IMG/VR virus record: IMGVR_UViG_2529292890_000002
Location: 1 to 26,412 of that record
Origin: a virus
Taxonomy: Duplodnaviria; Heunggongvirae; Uroviricota; Caudoviricetes
DNA length: 26,412 nucleotides
Direction: 5' to 3' (one strand)
Positions within the stretch are counted from its first letter, which is position 1. Every line of letters starts with the position of its first letter. Both the position numbers and the translations under genes were made by a program. The notes beneath the pieces are model-generated. The model was given only the letters and a program-made list of their open reading frames with translations. It was not told where the DNA came from and did no database searches. Below are positions 1-8,836 of this stretch, piece by piece.

Positions 1-106
1 GGGGGGGGGGGGGTTTTTTTTATCAGGTACTTAGAAAAAATCCCTTATAAATCAACCCTTCTTGCAACAGCCATAAGCAGTTACAAGAAGGATATAGCGT
101 TACGGG

Positions 107-126
107 TGTAGACAAGATGTAGACAA
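107..126. promoter_or_regulatory. Tandem direct repeat TGTAGACAA (107-115 and 118-126), 11 bp apart, just past the int stop; candidate integrase arm-type binding sites of the attachment region
   Basis: Exact 9-bp repeat seen in sequence at one helical-turn spacing, starting about 5 bp after the int stop codon (132-134 on plus). Confidence 0.35.
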
Positions 127-131
127 CATTG

Positions 132-1112
132 TCACACCGCCAGCCCGCCGCCAAGAGGGTTTAACGTTACTGCGTGTTGCAGATAATCGGGGGCCAGGTG
201 AGCATAAACCATCGTCTGTTGTATGCTGGCGTGCCCAAGAATTTGCTGTAACGCAATAATGTTTCCCCCGTTCATCATGAACCAGCTTGCGAACGTATGC
301 CGAAGCACATGCGTGGCCTGCCCGCGTGGTAAATCGGGCTTAACCTGTCTGAGCCGTTCGCAGAAGTTTTCATAATCAACTTTGAACAGTGGCCCGGTGT
401 CGCTGGTCTTGATCTCTTTCTCCAGTTCTTCCGATATCGGAACCGTGCGTTTTTTCCCGTTTTTGGTCTTAAGGAACGTTACGCGCCCGTGATTTACCTG
501 CTCGCCTCGCAGCGTGCTTCCTTCGCCCCAGCGTGCGCCGGTGCTGAGGCATAGCAGTGCCACGCGTCGATCGTCGCCGGTCAGAGTATCCAGCAATTTG
601 CTGATCTCAGATTTAGCGAGATAAGTCATAGCTGGCGGCGCTTCTTTCAGTGGTTCCAGACCCTTACAGGGGTTTTCCTTCCTGAACTCTTCCAGCTTTA
701 TCAACGTGCTGAACATCCCGGATAAGCGGTAAATATCACGGTTGATCGTTGCTGCGCTGATACCGTCCTCCAGCCGTTGGCTTCGGTGCTGTGCAATCAT
801 TCGCTTGTTCAGTCGGTTAACGGCTGGATCACCCAGCGCCCTGATTGTTTTATTCAGGTGCCGCTTTTCAATCTCGCCATTTTCCTGAGTCTGTCCATAC
901 AGCAGCCACCAGGTATCTAACAACTCGCTTAAGGTGCGGCGGTCAACGCTCGCGCCCAGCCATTCCTTTTTGTCGGCGTTGGCTAATACATAACGCTCAA
1001 AAAGAACTGCCTCTTGTTTCTTCTCAAATCGCCTGCGGATACGTTTTCCGTTACGTCCGCGCGGCCATACGTCTACTTCATATTGACCACCTTCGAGCTT
1101 CTTAATCGACAT
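132..1112 (-). CDS. int: Tyrosine-type site-specific integrase (P2 Int-like)
   Basis: 326 aa ORF with ATG start and upstream GGAGGG SD; C-terminal catalytic region HVLRHTFAS...GHASIQQTMVYAHL (H-x-x-R, His, Tyr) and upstream TGARWGE arginine box; sits at the prophage end next to the repressor. Confidence 0.9.
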   Translation of the reverse strand: MSIKKLEGGQYEVDVWPRGRNGKRIRRRFEKKQEAVLFERYVLANADKKEWLGASVDRRTLSELLDTWWLLYGQTQENGEIEKRHLNKTIRALGDPAVNRLNKRMIAQHRSQRLEDGISAATINRDIYRLSGMFSTLIKLEEFRKENPCKGLEPLKEAPPAMTYLAKSEISKLLDTLTGDDRRVALLCLSTGARWGEGSTLRGEQVNHGRVTFLKTKNGKKRTVPISEELEKEIKTSDTGPLFKVDYENFCERLRQVKPDLPRGQATHVLRHTFASWFMMNGGNIIALQQILGHASIQQTMVYAHLAPDYLQHAVTLNPLGGGLAV

Positions 1113-1181
1113 AAGAAAGCCCTCCGGCGTTTATTTCCCCATCCTGATAACAGATAGTGAAAATGTAATGTTTATAAACAG

Positions 1182-1502
1182 TTAACCAGTTTGTTTCTCG
1201 GAGCGGTCTGATCCAGTTGACTCTGGCCCAATGTGTGCGAGGGCCGGTGCGATTTGACCAGCTTGAGGGGCGGTCTTATCTGTCATGAGCCAGAGCGTGT
1301 ATTTTGCGAAACGTGAATGCTGAGTGATTTTAAGCAAGATATCGCTACCAATACTCTCCACTCTTCCTGTCTCGTAATACTTCTGCGTGCCAGCAGGTAT
1401 TCCTGTTAATTCAAAGAATTGCTGCCTTGTTAACCCCTCCGCATCCCTGATAGCTCTGATTTTTTCACCCACGCCGCTTGACGGGGTAGGGATCTCTACC
1501 AT
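1182..1502 (-). CDS. C: Immunity repressor (P2 C-like, HTH)
   Basis: Start chosen at ATG 1502 (strong AAGGAG SD 6 nt upstream) rather than the track's 1541; N-terminal HTH-like segment LTRQQFFELTGIPAGTQKYYETG; C-terminus GQIAPALAHIG...SEKQTG resembles the P2 C C-terminus as recalled. Confidence 0.8.
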   Translation of the reverse strand: MVEIPTPSSGVGEKIRAIRDAEGLTRQQFFELTGIPAGTQKYYETGRVESIGSDILLKITQHSRFAKYTLWLMTDKTAPQAGQIAPALAHIGPESTGSDRSEKQTG

Positions 1503-1577
1503 AACATTCTCCTTAAGGGTGGTAATCTCTACCATTAGCAACCGCCAATATAAGCAGTTACAAGCCGAAATAAGCGC
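1492..1577. promoter_or_regulatory. Divergent early control region between C and cox with direct repeats (candidate operators / Cox boxes)
   Basis: 11-bp direct repeat ATCTCTACCAT at 1492-1502 and 1525-1535 (one copy contains the C start codon); ATAAGCA/ATAAGCG repeats at 1550 and 1571, 21 bp apart. Confidence 0.4.
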
Positions 1578-1602
1578 CTAGCGCCAACGGGGATTATGAC
1601 AC

Positions 1603-1884
1603 ATGACAGAGAAAGATTTAGAGGGGTTCATTGAAGTGCGTCACGCTGTTGACGCGGTTCCATACCCAAAATTTGCCGAATTGATCGGTAAGAAGCCCGC
1701 CACGGTTAAGAGCATGATTGAAGACGGTAAGTTGCCGATCATCCCGTGGAAGAACCCGGAAAGCCTGGGCGCCCGTGCTGAGAACTGGATCTATATTCCT
1801 GAGTTCAACCGCGCAATGCGTGACGCTTACTACAACCGTCCGAGAGAGCAGCGCGATGCTTGGTTGCTGTGGATCGGTCTTTGA
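1603..1884 (+). CDS. cox: Cox-like excisionase / early-promoter repressor
   Basis: 93 aa ORF divergent from C; PYPKFAELIGKKPATVKSMIEDGKLPII and C-terminal RDAWLLWIGL resemble P2 Cox as recalled. Confidence 0.7.
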   Translation: MTEKDLEGFIEVRHAVDAVPYPKFAELIGKKPATVKSMIEDGKLPIIPWKNPESLGARAENWIYIPEFNRAMRDAYYNRPREQRDAWLLWIGL

Positions 1885-2535: not shown

Positions 2536-2629
2536 CAACGCCAGTTAAATAGTAATTAAAAAACTGTCTTCACTGTCGTCACTTAATTAAGTGATGGCGC
2601 TTTCACTCATCCTAAAAAGGATAAATAGC

Positions 2630-3064
2630 ATGTTTAATAAACTGTTTGGAAAAAAAGTAGCAGCGGCAAAAGTTGAACTTAAGAAAGTGGAAAATCGCGA
2701 TCTGATGGAAGCTATTGTCGGCGGTTGCCTTTTGGTATCTGCCGCCGATGGCGAGATCGAAAAAGAAGAAACCAGCAAGCTGGATCAGCTTATCCGCTCT
2801 AACCCGCGCCTTGCGCATTTCGGCAATGAAATCACATCCACCATCAACCGCTATACGGAACAGCTTGAAGCTGGCTTCCGCGTTGGCCGCATGAACATTT
2901 TGCGCGAAATCGACGACATCAAAAACGATCCGAAAGAAGCCGAAGAAGTCTTCGTCAACATGCTGACTATCGCCGAAGCGGACGGCCAGATCGAACCGGA
3001 AGAACAGAAGGTGCTGGAAGAGGTAGGGCGCCGTCTGGGGCTGCGTGTTGAGGATTATCTCTGA
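2630..3064 (+). CDS. TerB-like (tellurite-resistance TerB family) domain protein
   Basis: Start at ATG 2630 (MFNKLFGKK, AGGA SD upstream); two ADG-I-E-EE segments (AADGEIEKEE and AEADGQIEPEE) typical of TerB-family helical proteins as recalled. Confidence 0.55.
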   Translation: MFNKLFGKKVAAAKVELKKVENRDLMEAIVGGCLLVSAADGEIEKEETSKLDQLIRSNPRLAHFGNEITSTINRYTEQLEAGFRVGRMNILREIDDIKNDPKEAEEVFVNMLTIAEADGQIEPEEQKVLEEVGRRLGLRVEDYL

Positions 3065-3246
3065 TGCTGCGCGTGCTGGATTCACTACGTCCGGCGCTGG
3101 CCCTGCTGTTGGCCTTCATGGTCGTAGCAGTGGATTTCACCAGCTACCTGCTTTCGGTGATTGGCGACGCCTTCTTCGTTGGCGCTCTTCTTCTCCTTGT
3201 CTGGCCTGCCCTCAAGTCAGCTAACCAATCAGCGGATCACCAGTAA
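3064..3246 (+). CDS. Small hydrophobic membrane protein, translationally coupled to the TerB-like gene
   Basis: ATG overlaps the upstream stop (TGATG); 60 aa with two hydrophobic stretches (ALALLLAFMVVAV, FFVGALLLLVWPAL). Confidence 0.4.
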   Translation: MLRVLDSLRPALALLLAFMVVAVDFTSYLLSVIGDAFFVGALLLLVWPALKSANQSADHQ

Positions 3247-3288
3247 CAGATTGCCGGGGAAACCCGGCAATTTCTGAGGCTTCGAATC

Positions 3289-3501
3289 ATGACTAAACGC
3301 GATCAATATAACTTCATCCTGCACGTTCTCTTACCTGCTGTTGAGCGTGAAGGGCTGACGATTAAAACCCGACGCGATGGCGAGTTAACCCTTTCTTCTG
3401 ACGATCCCTCTGTTTCTTGCTTTATCGACGACATGCGCCAGCGCCTTACCACGGCGTTGCAGCGTCCGGCTGTTCCATCTTCCCCTTACGGAGTCCTGTA
3501 A
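3289..3501 (+). CDS. Hypothetical small protein
   Basis: 70 aa ORF with GAGG upstream; its stop lies 1 nt before the Dam start. Confidence 0.4.
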   Translation: MTKRDQYNFILHVLLPAVEREGLTIKTRRDGELTLSSDDPSVSCFIDDMRQRLTTALQRPAVPSSPYGVL

Positions 3502-3502
3502 A

Positions 3503-4474
3503 ATGATCCGCCCGTTCATCAAATGGGCAGGGGGTAAAACCCGTGTCCTCCCTGACCTGCTGCCGCATCTTCCTAAAGCTGACTGCCTGATCGAACCGTT
3601 CGTAGGCGGCGCATCGGTATTTCTGGCGACTGAATACCGCCGCTATGTGCTGGCTGATATCAACCAGGATCTTATTAACCTGTATCGGGAAGTCACCCGT
3701 TACCCGGACTTAGTGATCGATGCTGCCCGCGAATTGTTCAACAGTAAGAATAGCCCGCAGGGATACAACGAAGTCCGTGCCGCGTTCAATAAGCAGGTGG
3801 GTACGGTAAAAAGCGGTGGGTTGCGTTATGGCGCTGAAATGGCGTGCATTATGCGCGCTGCTCAATTCCTGTATCTGAATCGCCACGGTTATAACGGCTT
3901 ATGTCGATACAGCCGGAAGACCGGCTTTAACGTGCCGTTTGGCAAGTATAAGAGCGTCTACTTTCCTGAAAATGAAATCCGCCTGTTTTCCGAAAAGGCC
4001 AACGATACAAAAGCAATATTTCTTTGTGCGCCGTTCCAGCGTTCTCTACAGGTCGTCACGGGTGGCGATGTTCTCGTTTACTGCGATCCGCCTTACCTGC
4101 CTGAAAGCAAAACAGCCGATTTTACCCAATACCACACCGAACCATTCACGGAAGGCAACCACCGCCAGTTAGTCCAGGCACTGCTGGAAGTTAACCGTAA
4201 GCATGGCGTGAAGGTCGTCATTTCCAACAGCGATACCGAAGCCACCCGCGCGATTTATCAGCCCTTCAAGATGCACGAAATCAGCGTGCAACGTTCCATC
4301 AGCACCGACAAAGACAACCGCCAGAAGGCCAAAGAAGTGATCGGCGTGCTGCCTGTCTGCGACTGCTGCGGGCGTTACGGCGGCGGTTGCCCTGATTGTG
4401 GCGCCGTGATGGGTGATGCGACTTACAACGCGATGGTTGCGGCGGGCGCGTTTGACGATCTGGAGGCTTTTTAA
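3503..4474 (+). CDS. dam: DNA adenine methyltransferase (Dam-like, N6-adenine class) with Cys-rich C-terminal extension
   Basis: N-terminal FIKWAGGK, then EPFVGGASVF (AdoMet-binding) and catalytic DPPY; C-terminal CDCCGRYGGGCPDCG extension. Confidence 0.85.
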   Translation: MIRPFIKWAGGKTRVLPDLLPHLPKADCLIEPFVGGASVFLATEYRRYVLADINQDLINLYREVTRYPDLVIDAARELFNSKNSPQGYNEVRAAFNKQVGTVKSGGLRYGAEMACIMRAAQFLYLNRHGYNGLCRYSRKTGFNVPFGKYKSVYFPENEIRLFSEKANDTKAIFLCAPFQRSLQVVTGGDVLVYCDPPYLPESKTADFTQYHTEPFTEGNHRQLVQALLEVNRKHGVKVVISNSDTEATRAIYQPFKMHEISVQRSISTDKDNRQKAKEVIGVLPVCDCCGRYGGGCPDCGAVMGDATYNAMVAAGAFDDLEAF

Positions 4475-4653: not shown

Positions 4654-7037
4654 CCACGGAAACCCGTGGCCGTCGCGCCCCTTCTCCACCTCCACCGTAT
4701 CCGGGTAGCACTGACAATGCTATCCCTTACGCTTATGGCGGGAACAAACCATACCAGCCGATTGGCGTTGATGTAGCGCCGGGGCTGGATGGTTTCGACT
4801 ATCTCACGCCGGATGGCACGCGTAAGCATATTGCGTTCAGTGAACTGGTAGCGGAAGACGAAAAGCCAGAACGCAGTAAGCTGCTGCGTCGCCGTCTGGC
4901 TTCACTTCCGCAGTATGTTCGCCGCCACTTTGCCGCGAAGCTTGATGCGCTGGACGCGAAAGACCGTAAAGCGGCAGATCACTGGCTGGTTAATACCTTT
5001 GAGCGCCACGTATTAACTCGTATTGATAACGTAAACAGCATTTACCAGCCTGACAGCGTGATGCCCGGTATTCTGCTGCCTATCCGCGATCAGCTTTTCC
5101 GTATTCTCTGGGCGGGAAAAAAAGAGTTAAAAAGACTGGCTTATACGCTTGCCGATATCTTTACGAGCGAGTTTATACGCGAGTCCGATCACCAGTTGGC
5201 GCACACCGGCGATCCAGAGTTTGCGGCACTTTCTGGCTATGGTCGTATTGCGTCGCTGGCGGTGCATCTGAAAACGCCGATTCCCGGCTGGACAGCGTAT
5301 TGCAATGAAGAACTTGAAGCGGAGGACGCGTTACGCGCGGTTCTTCGTCTTGAGTCACCGCAGTGGTGGTTAAACCGCCTGCGTCGTATCCATGCCCGCT
5401 GGCGCGAGCATTTGATGATCGCTACGGGATACGTACAGGTGAAAGCCTCTCCGTACAGTAGCGCACCGTGTCTTACGGAATGGCTGGCCCAGAAAAAGGC
5501 TAACCGTGAATACCTCAAGGCTATGGAACTGGAGGATCAGGACACGGGCGAACGCATTTCACTGATCGATAAAGTCGCCGGCAGTGTTGCCAATCCGGCC
5601 AATCGTCGCCGCGAACTCATGACGAGAATGCGCGGATTTGAAGAACTGGCGAAGCTGGAAGGGCTGGCCGGTGACTTCTACACGCTGACAGCGCCTTCCC
5701 GTTATCACTCTATGCAGCACAATGGTCTTCGCAATAATAAATACCGTGGTGCGTCGCCGCGCGAGACGCAGCAGTATCTTTGCAAAGTCTGGGCGAGAAC
5801 CCGCGCCGCGTGGAAGAGAAAAGGTATCCGGGTCTTTGGCTTTCGTGTGGTGGAACCGCACCACGATGCAACGCCGCACTGGCATTTGCTTCTTTTTATG
5901 CGCCCGGAATGCGTTGAGCAGGCGCGTGAAATCTTCCGTAAACATGCCCTGAAAGAAGACGGCAACGAACCGGGAGCGCAGGAAAACCGCTTTCAGGTTG
6001 TGCCGATCGATGAAGCCCACGGCAGCGCTACCGGCTATATAGCGAAATACATTTCGAAGAATATTGACGGCTTCGCGTTGGATGGCGAGAAGGACGATGA
6101 AACCGGGGAAGATCTGAAAGAAATGTCTCTCCGCGTTAGCGCGTGGGCGTCGCGCTGGTCTATTCGCCAGTTTCAGCAGATCGGCGGTGCGCCGGTCACG
6201 GTATATCGCGAGCTTCGCCGCTTGGGCGATCGCGAACTGGTGTTACACCCTGAACTGGAAACCGCCCGGCAGGCCGCTAACGGTGGCGAATGGGATAACT
6301 ACGTATTAGCCCAGGGTGGCCCGTTGGTTGAGCGCGATAAGCTGCGCATCCGTCTGAATTATGAAACCACTGAAAACGGCAACGCCTACGGCGATAACGT
6401 CCAGCGAATCACCGGTATCTATTGCCCGCTTACGGGTAATAACTCTTTGATCTTCACCCGCACCACTCAATACAAAATCGTGCCGAAGCGTCAGAGCGCT
6501 GACGGTGTGGCCGTTGACGTTGGTTTTTCAGGCGGCAGCGCCGCCCCTCGGAGTTCTGTCAATAACTGTACGCGGGATCCCGCGGCAGGTGCTGACGGTG
6601 TTGAACATGCCGCCAGCGAAGCTAAAGAACAGTCAGGAATGACTGTGCCAGCTGAGGGCGTGACGGTGAATTTTGATGCGCTTTCACGGCAGGAAAAGCG
6701 AGAACTGGCGCAGCGGCTTAGTGACGATGTGCGAAGTAAGCGTAAAAAACGGCCACTGGAACGGGAAGAGGGGGCCGGGCTATCCGTGAAAGAGCAGCAG
6801 ATCAGTGAACTGCTGGCGCTGCGTGGGATTGATGCCAGCGCCGGAATGGTCAGATCGATGATTGCGGGTGCGTCAGTGGCGTGCGGCGATCTTGTTATGA
6901 CCGTGCAGGACGGGCGGCTGGTATCGCGCAACCGCGCAGCGTCCGGGCTGGATAAGCTACCGTCGCAGGTGATGGCGGCGAAGCAAAAAACAAGTGATCT
7001 TGTGAACAGGATGAAAGCAGCATTTTCGCGGAACTAA
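4650..7037 (+). CDS. A: Replication initiation protein A (rolling-circle nicking initiator, P2 gpA-like)
   Basis: 795 aa; HUH-type motif HWHLLLF and paired catalytic tyrosines YIAKYISK (Y-x-x-K-Y); sits between the early genes and the cargo/cos region as in P2. Confidence 0.9.
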   Translation: MTTETRGRRAPSPPPPYPGSTDNAIPYAYGGNKPYQPIGVDVAPGLDGFDYLTPDGTRKHIAFSELVAEDEKPERSKLLRRRLASLPQYVRRHFAAKLDALDAKDRKAADHWLVNTFERHVLTRIDNVNSIYQPDSVMPGILLPIRDQLFRILWAGKKELKRLAYTLADIFTSEFIRESDHQLAHTGDPEFAALSGYGRIASLAVHLKTPIPGWTAYCNEELEAEDALRAVLRLESPQWWLNRLRRIHARWREHLMIATGYVQVKASPYSSAPCLTEWLAQKKANREYLKAMELEDQDTGERISLIDKVAGSVANPANRRRELMTRMRGFEELAKLEGLAGDFYTLTAPSRYHSMQHNGLRNNKYRGASPRETQQYLCKVWARTRAAWKRKGIRVFGFRVVEPHHDATPHWHLLLFMRPECVEQAREIFRKHALKEDGNEPGAQENRFQVVPIDEAHGSATGYIAKYISKNIDGFALDGEKDDETGEDLKEMSLRVSAWASRWSIRQFQQIGGAPVTVYRELRRLGDRELVLHPELETARQAANGGEWDNYVLAQGGPLVERDKLRIRLNYETTENGNAYGDNVQRITGIYCPLTGNNSLIFTRTTQYKIVPKRQSADGVAVDVGFSGGSAAPRSSVNNCTRDPAAGADGVEHAASEAKEQSGMTVPAEGVTVNFDALSRQEKRELAQRLSDDVRSKRKKRPLEREEGAGLSVKEQQISELLALRGIDASAGMVRSMIAGASVACGDLVMTVQDGRLVSRNRAASGLDKLPSQVMAAKQKTSDLVNRMKAAFSRN

Positions 7038-7195
7038 GCCGATATAAGCCGCTCTAAGAAGCAATTACCCATTTTCCACACAATCGAAATAGTTATGACT
7101 TTCGCCGTTTTCTGCTTATAGTGTGCGCGCTTTTGTGTCATAACTAAGCTAATAATAAATGGCATTTCGCTTACACACGCAGTTAGGAGGCTCTT

Positions 7196-8194
7196 ATGAC
7201 GAACCATAATCAGATGAGTCAGATATATTCTAAATTCGGCCGGGCCGGGTTTAATCTCTCTTACATCCGCAGGTTGTTGCCTGACTGGTGGGATGAGAAG
7301 CTTGCTGACACCCCATCAGGGCGCCAGTATGCGTGCCTGCACCTTGCGCGTATGTTTAGCATTCTCCCGGATAGCCTGAAAGATGGTAGCGAAGGGGTAT
7401 GCTTTAATTTTGGTGGAAACCATAAATATAAACATCGCCAAAATGTAGCCGAGAACGATTTAGATATCGCTACTGCTGTTGCCTATACTGCGGCCGGTAT
7501 TGTCGCGTCTAATTTCAAAGTCCCTTACGATGCCAGTGCAGTGCTGGATCCTTTGGCTATAAGAACCCAGATTCTTACTAAGGAATCATGGGTATCGCTA
7601 GATAGCCTGGTAACATACTGTCATTCGATTGGCATTCCTGTTGTTTATCTAAAATGCTTCCCTCAAGCTGCCAAAAAAATGGCCGGGCTGGCGCTAATGA
7701 GTCACGGGCGCCCGGTGATTGTTCTTACTCAGCCTCAGAAATATGGCTATATGCTGTTTGATCTCGCGCATGAGTTAGGCCATATCGCCAGAGGGCATCT
7801 GAACGCAGAAAACGGGCAGTGCCATATTGATGCAAAAATTGAGAATGCTTCGACGGACAACGTAGAGAAAGAAGCCAACGAATTCGCCTTCCAGGTCATT
7901 TCGGGGCAGAAGTCTTTACGTATCGTTCCTACCGCTGGCAGGTTGAATGGGCCTGGTTTGGCTCGCGCGGCTCAAAAGTTTGGAAGTGATAATCACATTG
8001 ACCCGACTCACATCGCTTTAAATTATGGTTTCGCGCAGAACTGCTGGGGCGCTGCTGTTAACGCTGTTAAAGCACTCTGTGCTGGTGAAGACTCAGATCA
8101 GGATTTTGTGAGGGCCATGATGAAAAGCGGGATGGATTTAGAAAATATCCACGAAGATGATCTTAAGGTTTTAGAAAATCTAATCGGGGAATAA
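7196..8194 (+). CDS. Cargo protein with ImmA/IrrE-type (M78-like) HEXXH metallopeptidase motif; N-terminal ~180 aa of unknown function
   Basis: Strong SD AGGAGG 5 nt before ATG; motif MLFDLAHELGHIARGHL; AT-rich by eye; own upstream promoter-like sequence. Confidence 0.6.
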   Translation: MTNHNQMSQIYSKFGRAGFNLSYIRRLLPDWWDEKLADTPSGRQYACLHLARMFSILPDSLKDGSEGVCFNFGGNHKYKHRQNVAENDLDIATAVAYTAAGIVASNFKVPYDASAVLDPLAIRTQILTKESWVSLDSLVTYCHSIGIPVVYLKCFPQAAKKMAGLALMSHGRPVIVLTQPQKYGYMLFDLAHELGHIARGHLNAENGQCHIDAKIENASTDNVEKEANEFAFQVISGQKSLRIVPTAGRLNGPGLARAAQKFGSDNHIDPTHIALNYGFAQNCWGAAVNAVKALCAGEDSDQDFVRAMMKSGMDLENIHEDDLKVLENLIGE

Positions 8195-8197
8195 TAA

Positions 8198-8836
8198 GTG
8201 ATTGTTCTTTCTGACAATGATGTCATTTTGAAGCTGGCCCAGTGCAATCTGTTATCACAACTGCCAGTGGTTTTTAACCAACCCCCCGAACAGATCTTCA
8301 TTAACCCTGCTGCTCGTTTTCAGCTTCTGCCGAAAAATCCTGATAAAGCAATCAGGAAGTGTGGTAGCCAGGTTGTTTACGAGCAGGTGGGAGCCTTCAT
8401 TGAATCTGTACAGGATATCCCGGAAGTTCAGGACTCACAGCTTATTGAGCTTTTGGGGAGTGTGCCCGGAATTGATGTAGGCGAACAGCTATTGCTTGCC
8501 TCGTGCATAGAGAACCCAGAAGCCATTTTCATGACTGGTGATCGCCGCTGTTTGACTGCAATTGTTGCAAACCAACCGGCCCTTTCCGTGATTCATCAGC
8601 GTTTACTGGATGCAGTTGTTACCTTTGAGTCGTCACTTTTGTTATGTGTCCACGGTACAGATCAGGCTCAAGTTTATGAAAATTTGGTGAGCAATCCTAA
8701 ACCTGACGGCATGTTGAAATTGGCTCTTTCAAACGCTGGCGCTGCAATGTGCGAATGTATCTTTTCCCATACTCGTGAGTTTTACGATTACCTTGCCTTC
8801 AAAGATCGACTTCCTGATCGGGAGTGGGGAAGGTAA
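8198..8836 (+). CDS. Cargo partner protein of unknown function (possible PIN-like fold, speculative)
   Basis: GTG start 3 nt after the upstream stop with GGGGA upstream; 212 aa; N-terminal IVLSDNDVILKL plus later acidic residues (IDVGEQ, FMTGDRR) loosely resemble PIN nucleases; followed by a terminator. Confidence 0.5.
   Translation: MIVLSDNDVILKLAQCNLLSQLPVVFNQPPEQIFINPAARFQLLPKNPDKAIRKCGSQVVYEQVGAFIESVQDIPEVQDSQLIELLGSVPGIDVGEQLLLASCIENPEAIFMTGDRRCLTAIVANQPALSVIHQRLLDAVVTFESSLLLCVHGTDQAQVYENLVSNPKPDGMLKLALSNAGAAMCECIFSHTREFYDYLAFKDRLPDREWGR

Follow-up and report, generated by a model that had tools for sequence, protein, structure and literature searches.

Results

Two copies of a 15-nucleotide word in the left-end regulatory region

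Can one DNA word serve the same regulator at a phage attachment site and at its genetic switch? The question is raised by the left end of a 26,412-nucleotide stretch of tailed-phage DNA (IMG/VR record IMGVR_UViG_2529292890_000002, positions 1 to 26,412; hereafter the window), a P2-like regulatory region with the gene order int-C / cox, in which the 15-mer ATAAGCAGTTACAAG is found near the attachment site (att) and again between the C repressor gene and cox. The original prediction regarded this 15-mer as a good candidate for the recognition element of Cox, the protein expected to act at both places. We consider it probable, judging from sequence comparisons, that the two copies belong to two operator arrays of the phage's Cox, one at att and one at the switch. 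The 15-mer itself is not the recognised unit, as it spans the first box and half of the second box in an array of three boxes phased at 10 bp. We infer Cox as the binding protein, and the exact box limits, from the sequences, positions and concerted evolution described below.

A search of the whole window returned exact matches to ATAAGCAGTTACAAG at 73-87 (+) and 1550-1564 (+) and found no third exact copy, in agreement with what had been claimed. Allowing up to three mismatches added a sole further match at 3888-3902 (-), with 0.54 expected by chance; this sequence, ATAAGCCGTTATAAC, has three mismatches, lies inside the dam methylase gene without a third phased box and is probably a chance match. 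Judged window-wide, the bare 15-mer repeat is not beyond chance either: the window holds four separate exact pairs of at least 15 nt and one palindrome, against a mean of 1.56 such pairs in equally long random sequences from a Markov model. We therefore rejected the length of the word, taken over the whole window, as a measure of significance. Its significance comes instead from the location of the copies. When the intervals 25-131 and 1503-1602 were compared, 15 nt or more in common appeared in 0 of 5000 dinucleotide shuffles (the maximum was 14, reached once), and a 15-mer shared between two non-coding regions of about 100 bp is thus far beyond chance.

The likeness of the two regions also exceeds the 15-mer. 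Local alignment of 64-87 with 1538-1564 gave 23 of 24 identical positions with one 3-nt gap and a score of 17, where the best of 2000 shuffles scored 15, and to the right of the 15-mer the similarity goes on in register, with AGCG at 96-99 and 1573-1576. To the left of each array lies a related element, TWGCAACNGCC, read as TTGCAACAGCC at 62-72 (+) and, by alignment to the att element, as TAGCAACCGCC at 1536-1546 (+), with 9 of 11 positions matching; the AACCGC of the switch element was found at the equivalent place in several other Cox subtypes. Membership in a longer duplicated segment unrelated to regulation had been named as an observation that would speak against a Cox element. The 15-mer does belong to a longer similar segment, but this segment is not unrelated to regulation.

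The att copy lies between the attachment core and the Int arm sites

The core was placed by aligning the window, the attP of phage phiT5282H, an Escherichia coli prophage junction and the empty K-12 cpxP-fieF site. In these alignments the right end of the attP/attB common core, CACCATCCCTGTCTTCCCCCACATGATGTGGGGGTTTTTTTTATC, occupies window positions 1-24 (+), ends at about position 24 and corresponds to the 3' end and terminator of cpxP/cpxQ. On its other side the interval is bounded by int, encoding a tyrosine integrase at 132-1112 (-) (Pfam Int_N, 9e-33; Phage_integrase, 2e-19), and by two direct repeats of TGTAGACAA at 107-126 (+) (107-115 and 118-126), which we read from the sequence itself as the arm-type Int sites P'1 and P'2. 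Their partners on the other arm of the phiT5282H attP are TGTAGTCAA and TGTAGACGA, and the P' arm sites annotated in the GenBank record of P2 are in the equivalent place. Because the core ends at about 24 and the arm repeats stand at 107-126, the copy at 73-87 is located in the P' arm, between the core and P'1/P'2, so that its description as att-proximal can be sharpened to the int-proximal arm of attP. The order given for P2 in GenBank is the core, a 74-bp Cox protein-binding region, and P' Int sites overlapping the end of int, and the interval holding the window copy is the interval of this annotated protein_bind feature. The putative Cox array of the P' arm, ATAAGCAGTT / ACAAGAAGGA / TATAGCGTTA at 73-102 (+), is proposed from this P2 position and from its conservation across 13 distinct relatives; the reported 15-mer is its first 15 nt.

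The switch copy lies between the probable C operators and cox

The second copy was correctly assigned to the C-cox switch region. The gene at 1182-1502 (-) encodes the immunity repressor C (106 aa, with the ATG at 1502 as start); its HTH_31 match (E 2e-4) is below the Pfam cut-off, the protein is 48-60% identical to the C proteins of P2 and WPhi, and the locus is annotated as transcriptional regulator or repressor C in phiT5282H and SEN5. The divergent cox at 1603-1884 (+), the first early-operon gene in the window, encodes a P2-type Cox (Pfam Phage_Cox, PF10743, 2e-23) that matches the P2 Cox crystal structure 4LHF at 1.5e-23. A consensus promoter scan found TTGACG-18-TAACAT at 1478-1507 (+), which we read as the early promoter Pe; its −35 element is just inside the C start, a geometry equal to that of the annotated Pe of P2. 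Its −10 element is bracketed by two 19-nt direct repeats at 1484-1502 and 1517-1535 (+), spaced 33 bp apart and read as the half-sites O1 and O2 of the C operator. The C operators of WPhi show the same centre-to-centre distance of 33 nt (PMC1904263), and these repeats, rather than the 15-mer, are likely to be the C operators. The repeat at 1484-1535 includes the C start codon and so creates two in-frame ATGs, at 1502 and 1535; C starts differ between database records, with 106 aa in phiT5282H and 117 aa in SEN5.

The copy at 1550-1564 sits to the right of these repeats and of Pe, between C and cox, and Cox and Apl operators occupy the equivalent place in P2-like phages (PMC7498355; PMC3936717). 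The −10 element of the opposing promoter Pc is probably TATATT at 1547-1552 (-), which was picked by eye from its similarity to the annotated Pc −10 of P2 (CATTATAAGACA in P2, CAATATAAGCAG in the window) and overlaps the first 3 nt of the 15-mer. A TAnnnT hexamer is kept at this position in most, though not all, type-1 variants (defined below), while the consensus promoter scan did not recover Pc. The putative Cox operator array of the switch, ATAAGCAGTT / ACAAGCCGAA / ATAAGCGCCT, covers 1550-1579 (+) and is proposed from its phased AYAAGC boxes and from conservation.

Both copies are part of phased three-box arrays

In the switch array AYAAGC recurs at 1550, 1560 and 1570, that is, in 10-bp phase. 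Both arrays can be described by a putative box consensus of about WWAYAAGC, with approximately three head-to-tail boxes per array placed one helical turn apart. Direct repeats with this spacing are a hallmark of the sites of directionality factors, Cox and Apl included (PMC7498355; PMC3936717). Three YAAG[CA] boxes in exact 10-bp phase have just two occurrences in the window, at 1551 and 7035, and none in 200 shuffles, and a looser score of at least 16 out of 18 for three phased boxes singled out only three places, at 73, 1550 and 7034. The search for further copies and sub-motifs thus yielded a third phased array, at 7034-7063, where no third exact 15-mer exists.

How such arrays might work can be outlined on the assumption that Cox here would be a winged-helix recombination directionality factor acting also as lytic repressor. 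At the switch, cooperative Cox binding would cover the putative Pc −10 and the Pc spacer, and transcription of C and int would be shut off. In the P' arm, DNA bending by Cox bound between the core and the Int arm sites would favour excision and block integration.

The site sequence follows the type of Cox

A comparative set of 112 loci was collected through the Cox protein, together with reference phages, and Int, C and Cox were typed in each; most IMG/VR loci end at the int stop codon and so are without a P' arm. Among loci with a type-1 Cox (at least 95% identical) there are 27 distinct operator variants, combined with C proteins of 48-100% identity. In these 27 variants the block [AT]T[AT]ARGCAGTTRYAAGCCGAAATAAGCGCC is kept at 45-61 nt from the C start and the invariant operator positions read GCAG.T..A.G..GAA..A.GCG, while the left half of the spacer varies with C type. 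The switch block keeps its place even where 0.5-1.5 kb of other genes split it from cox. Such extra genes between switch and cox are present in many relatives (our loci L002, at 3027-3912, L016, L017, L055, L062, L067-L075 and L086), in which the early genes do not begin with cox, the switch block adjoins C, and the sequence upstream of cox differs (CCATGCGCCGGGCATGG...).

A second type of Cox provides a natural comparison. In four loci (L021, L095, L115 and L101) Int is 93-94% identical and Cox only 71-75% identical, and Int divergence between the Cox types is no greater than that within type 1. Both copies in these type-2 loci read (A/T)GAAGCGGCTACA(A/G)C, so that positions 2, 7, 9 and 15 of the 15-mer have changed alike at att and at the switch; in L021 the 12-mer GAAGCGGCTACA is common to both regions. 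When the recognition helix is aligned to that of P2, 7 of 10 residues differ between the two Cox types (KPATVKSMIE in one, SPSAVGDMVR in the other), and the C-terminal halves are almost identical. The site sequence therefore tracks the Cox type, independently of C type and of Int divergence.

The comparison with P2 and WPhi that had been proposed as a check was run as a positive control. In P2 the P' arm and the Pe-Pc region share the cox-box word TTAAACG, and in WPhi, a phage for which Cox binding has been investigated by experiment, they share AAGGGACTGGA, an 11-mer; both phages thus gave the expected outcome. More distant Cox subtypes (L022-L027 and L030) carry arrays of xAAGC, spaced 10-11 bp apart, in both regions.

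Several observations weigh against assigning both arrays to Cox. A longest-shared-word test over 13 Cox clusters was only modestly positive, with a mean of 8.4 for cognate and 6.8 for non-cognate pairs and overlapping ranges; this test is too crude for short degenerate boxes, and many loci were lost to it through mis-estimated cox starts. Because the operator block belongs physically to the early-operon module, linkage accounts for part of its association with Cox type, and the independent evidence for tracking is carried by the att copy. That copy, in turn, is an arm of a conserved RNA hairpin (see below), and part of its conservation has another cause. The third att box is weaker and fits only with a 1-nt shift, and there are only about three boxes per site compared with at least six in P2. 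Weighing these points against the P2 position, the WPhi control, the tracking of Cox type and the concerted changes, we keep the part of the original prediction that places the 15-mer within a putative Cox element and give up the part that equates the two.

A conserved hairpin at the att copy and the possibility of an RNA-level function

The most serious alternative, although an unlikely one, is that the two copies function at the RNA level. An imperfect inverted repeat at 57-91 (-) (arms 57-71 and 77-91, 87% complementary) forms a hairpin in the int-sense RNA about 40 nt past the stop codon of int; one of its arms and its loop consist of the 15-mer copy at att. The int-sense fold of 25-135 (111 nt), with a minimum free energy of −33.5 kcal/mol and a z-score of −4.07, is dominated by this hairpin. 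It is conserved in relatives, in which 4 of its 12 pairs show compensatory changes and its G.U pairs can form only in the int-sense RNA. The 3' tail of the hairpin is GUUGAUUUAU, not a clean run of U, and a terminator scan made no call there. The hairpin is probably the 3' hairpin of the C-int transcript, serving as its end or as a stabiliser, and superimposed on the putative boxes.

According to this alternative, the att copy is a hairpin arm, the Pe leader is complementary to the hairpin, and the copies co-evolve to preserve an RNA-RNA contact rather than a protein site. Since the copies are transcribed in opposite senses, the 15 nt in the Pe leader and those in the int hairpin are exact complements, and this pairing would likewise survive concerted change. 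Of the differences between the two copies within a genome, 18 would keep pairing through G.U and 16 would break it; this bias toward G.U is what the A-rich composition predicts, however, and the counts are not independent, which leaves them uninformative. Other observations speak against an RNA contact. The Pe leader has no significant structure (z 0.26), a search of Rfam gave no matching family, and in SEN5, L056 and L090 the pairing is broken internally while the AAGC cores of the boxes persist. Furthermore, box 3 is outside the hairpin and yet alike at att and at the switch, the box arrays of other Cox subtypes show no long complementarity, and the coincident changes in the recognition helix would be left unexplained. 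A narrower version, in which the early (Pe/cox) leader pairs over 15 nt with the 5' arm and loop of the C-int 3' hairpin, besides or instead of Cox binding, strikes us as quite improbable. If true, it would mean that lytic transcription could open the hairpin and alter termination or stability of the int mRNA, a trans-acting link from the switch to the supply of integrase.

Binding of both copies by a factor other than Cox, such as the C repressor, Int or a host protein like IHF, is equally hard to credit, even though the attP of P2 also binds Int and IHF. As a C operator the 15-mer was rejected: the C-operator-like repeats differ from it in sequence, being 19-mers at a spacing of 33 bp, and the word persists across unrelated C types. 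As an Int or IHF site it was rejected as well: the Int arm repeats (TGTAGACAA) are distinct, and Int barely differs between word types. The IHF consensus is WATCAANNNNTTR, which the word does not fit when the two are compared by eye, and a host factor would not require concerted change in phages of the same hosts. Finally, chance or a functionless remnant of a small duplication can be set aside, because, although about 1.6 exact 15-mer pairs are expected per 26 kb and three other pairs occur in the window, both copies lie in two short stretches of regulatory DNA (0 of 5000 shuffles), have been kept in many relatives and changed alike in the type-2 lineage.

Comparison with known Cox, Apl and Xis sites

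The cox boxes of P2 read TTAAA(G/C)NC(A/C) and occur at attP, at Pc and at PLL of phage P4, with at least six per target. The window system resembles that of P2 in its homologous Cox (PF10743; matching 4LHF), in a first site that separates the core from the P' Int arm sites, in a second that would lie over Pc (placed here by similarity), and in boxes 10-11 bp apart. The P2 sequence TTATAAGACA at the Pc −10 is comparable to ATATAAGCAG and TTACAAGCCG in the window, and TTAAACGTTAC, adjoining P'1 in P2, corresponds to TATAGCGTTAC. By contrast, the window consensus is about WWAYAAGC with approximately three boxes per site, so neither the P2 sequence nor the P2 number of at least six is found, and the two sites share a long exact word (15 nt) in the window but 7 nt in P2.

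Closer similarity is seen with WPhi. Its Cox operators, credited to Ahlgren-Berg et al. in 2009 and summarised in PMC5009727, reportedly consist of an imperfect 12-nt direct repeat in the Pe-Pc region and a related 9-bp repeat at attP. The two phages share the attachment core at the terminator of cpxP/cpxQ and a 33-nt spacing of their C operators (putative in the window), and the switch of each contains a pair of imperfect 12-mers at a distance of 20 bp, which in the window are ATAAGCAGTTAC and ATAAGCGCCTAG (8 of 12 identical); both also have a long word common to the switch and the P' arm, of 11 nt in WPhi and 15 nt in the window. The proposed recognition sequence, however, is entirely different, and Cox is 52% identical.

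The Apl protein of phage 186 has seven operators at pR-pL and five at attP (PMC7498355). Apl and the window Cox are alike as dual directionality factors and switch regulators, with direct repeats 10-11 bp apart at att and at face-to-face promoters, but Apl is only distantly related and has more boxes, each of 6 bp, and the immunity of 186 is of the CI/CII type. The X1-X1.5-X2 sites of lambda Xis are likewise three head-to-tail sites one helical turn apart, of which the middle one is less specific; Xis, unlike Cox, belongs to another protein family and has no role in the genetic switch.

The system is best filed as another specificity class of the P2-type Cox operator system, architecturally closest to WPhi. 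We propose a separate class, as in WPhi, because there are about three boxes per site and their consensus differs. The arrangement is the one expected for the phage family and leaves the understanding of the group unchanged, and a literature search found no description of Cox sites for this phage group. What is gained is a testable candidate Cox operator for widespread P2-like prophages of the phiT5282H/SEN4 type, which insert at cpxP/cpxQ in Escherichia, Salmonella, Enterobacter and relatives. The most useful by-product is a natural series that almost amounts to a specificity swap already set up for a winged-helix directionality factor: one Cox occurs beside many C types, and in its sister Cox seven helix changes go with four matching base changes at both sites.

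Phage relatives and the attachment core

The window is most closely related to phage phiT5282H of Enterobacter (97% identity) and to phages SEN4 and SEN5 of Salmonella. A matching prophage region was found in 43 complete E. coli genomes, and the single junction inspected falls between cpxP and fieF. The attachment core corresponds to the 3' end and terminator of cpxQ, the sRNA of the cpxP 3' untranslated region (loci L001, 1440-1520, and L004, 850-900), and the terminator is restored by the phage copy of the core after insertion. An identical core is used by WPhi, L-413C, SI7, ev239 and YpM_50 despite their differing switch modules. Window positions 1-13 are a run of 13 G where relatives have CATGATGTGGGGG, and this run is probably an artefact of the contig end or of sequencing rather than biology. 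Adjoining the core at 21-34 is TATCAGGTACTTA, with one mismatch to the IHF consensus; in WPhi-type relatives the equivalent position holds a perfect TATCAATCACTTA, and this phage group may possess an IHF site on the P' side.

A third phased array and the neighbouring early genes

The third array, CTAAGCCGAT / ATAAGCCGCT / CTAAGAAGCA at 7034-7063 (+), is one of the three places scoring at least 16 out of 18. It begins at the stop codon of gene A and ends 32 nt upstream of a promoter-like site, ATGACT-16-TATAGT at 7095-7122, which precedes a two-gene moron at 7196-8836 whose genes encode an M78 peptidase of the ImmA/IrrE type (weak PADLOC hits) and a product without a family match. From its boxes, the array is a possible additional Cox target, and its geometry relative to the downstream promoter-like site resembles that of P4 PLL activation by P2 Cox. 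SEN5 is without both the cassette and the third array, and twelve E. coli genomes have both, several of them also with a type-1 switch. When the cassette at the end of gene A was traced in IMG/VR by a flanking 25-mer, one contig matched. The early region between cox and gene A also encodes a TerB-domain protein and a D12-class Dam methylase (2591-3064 and 3503-4474).

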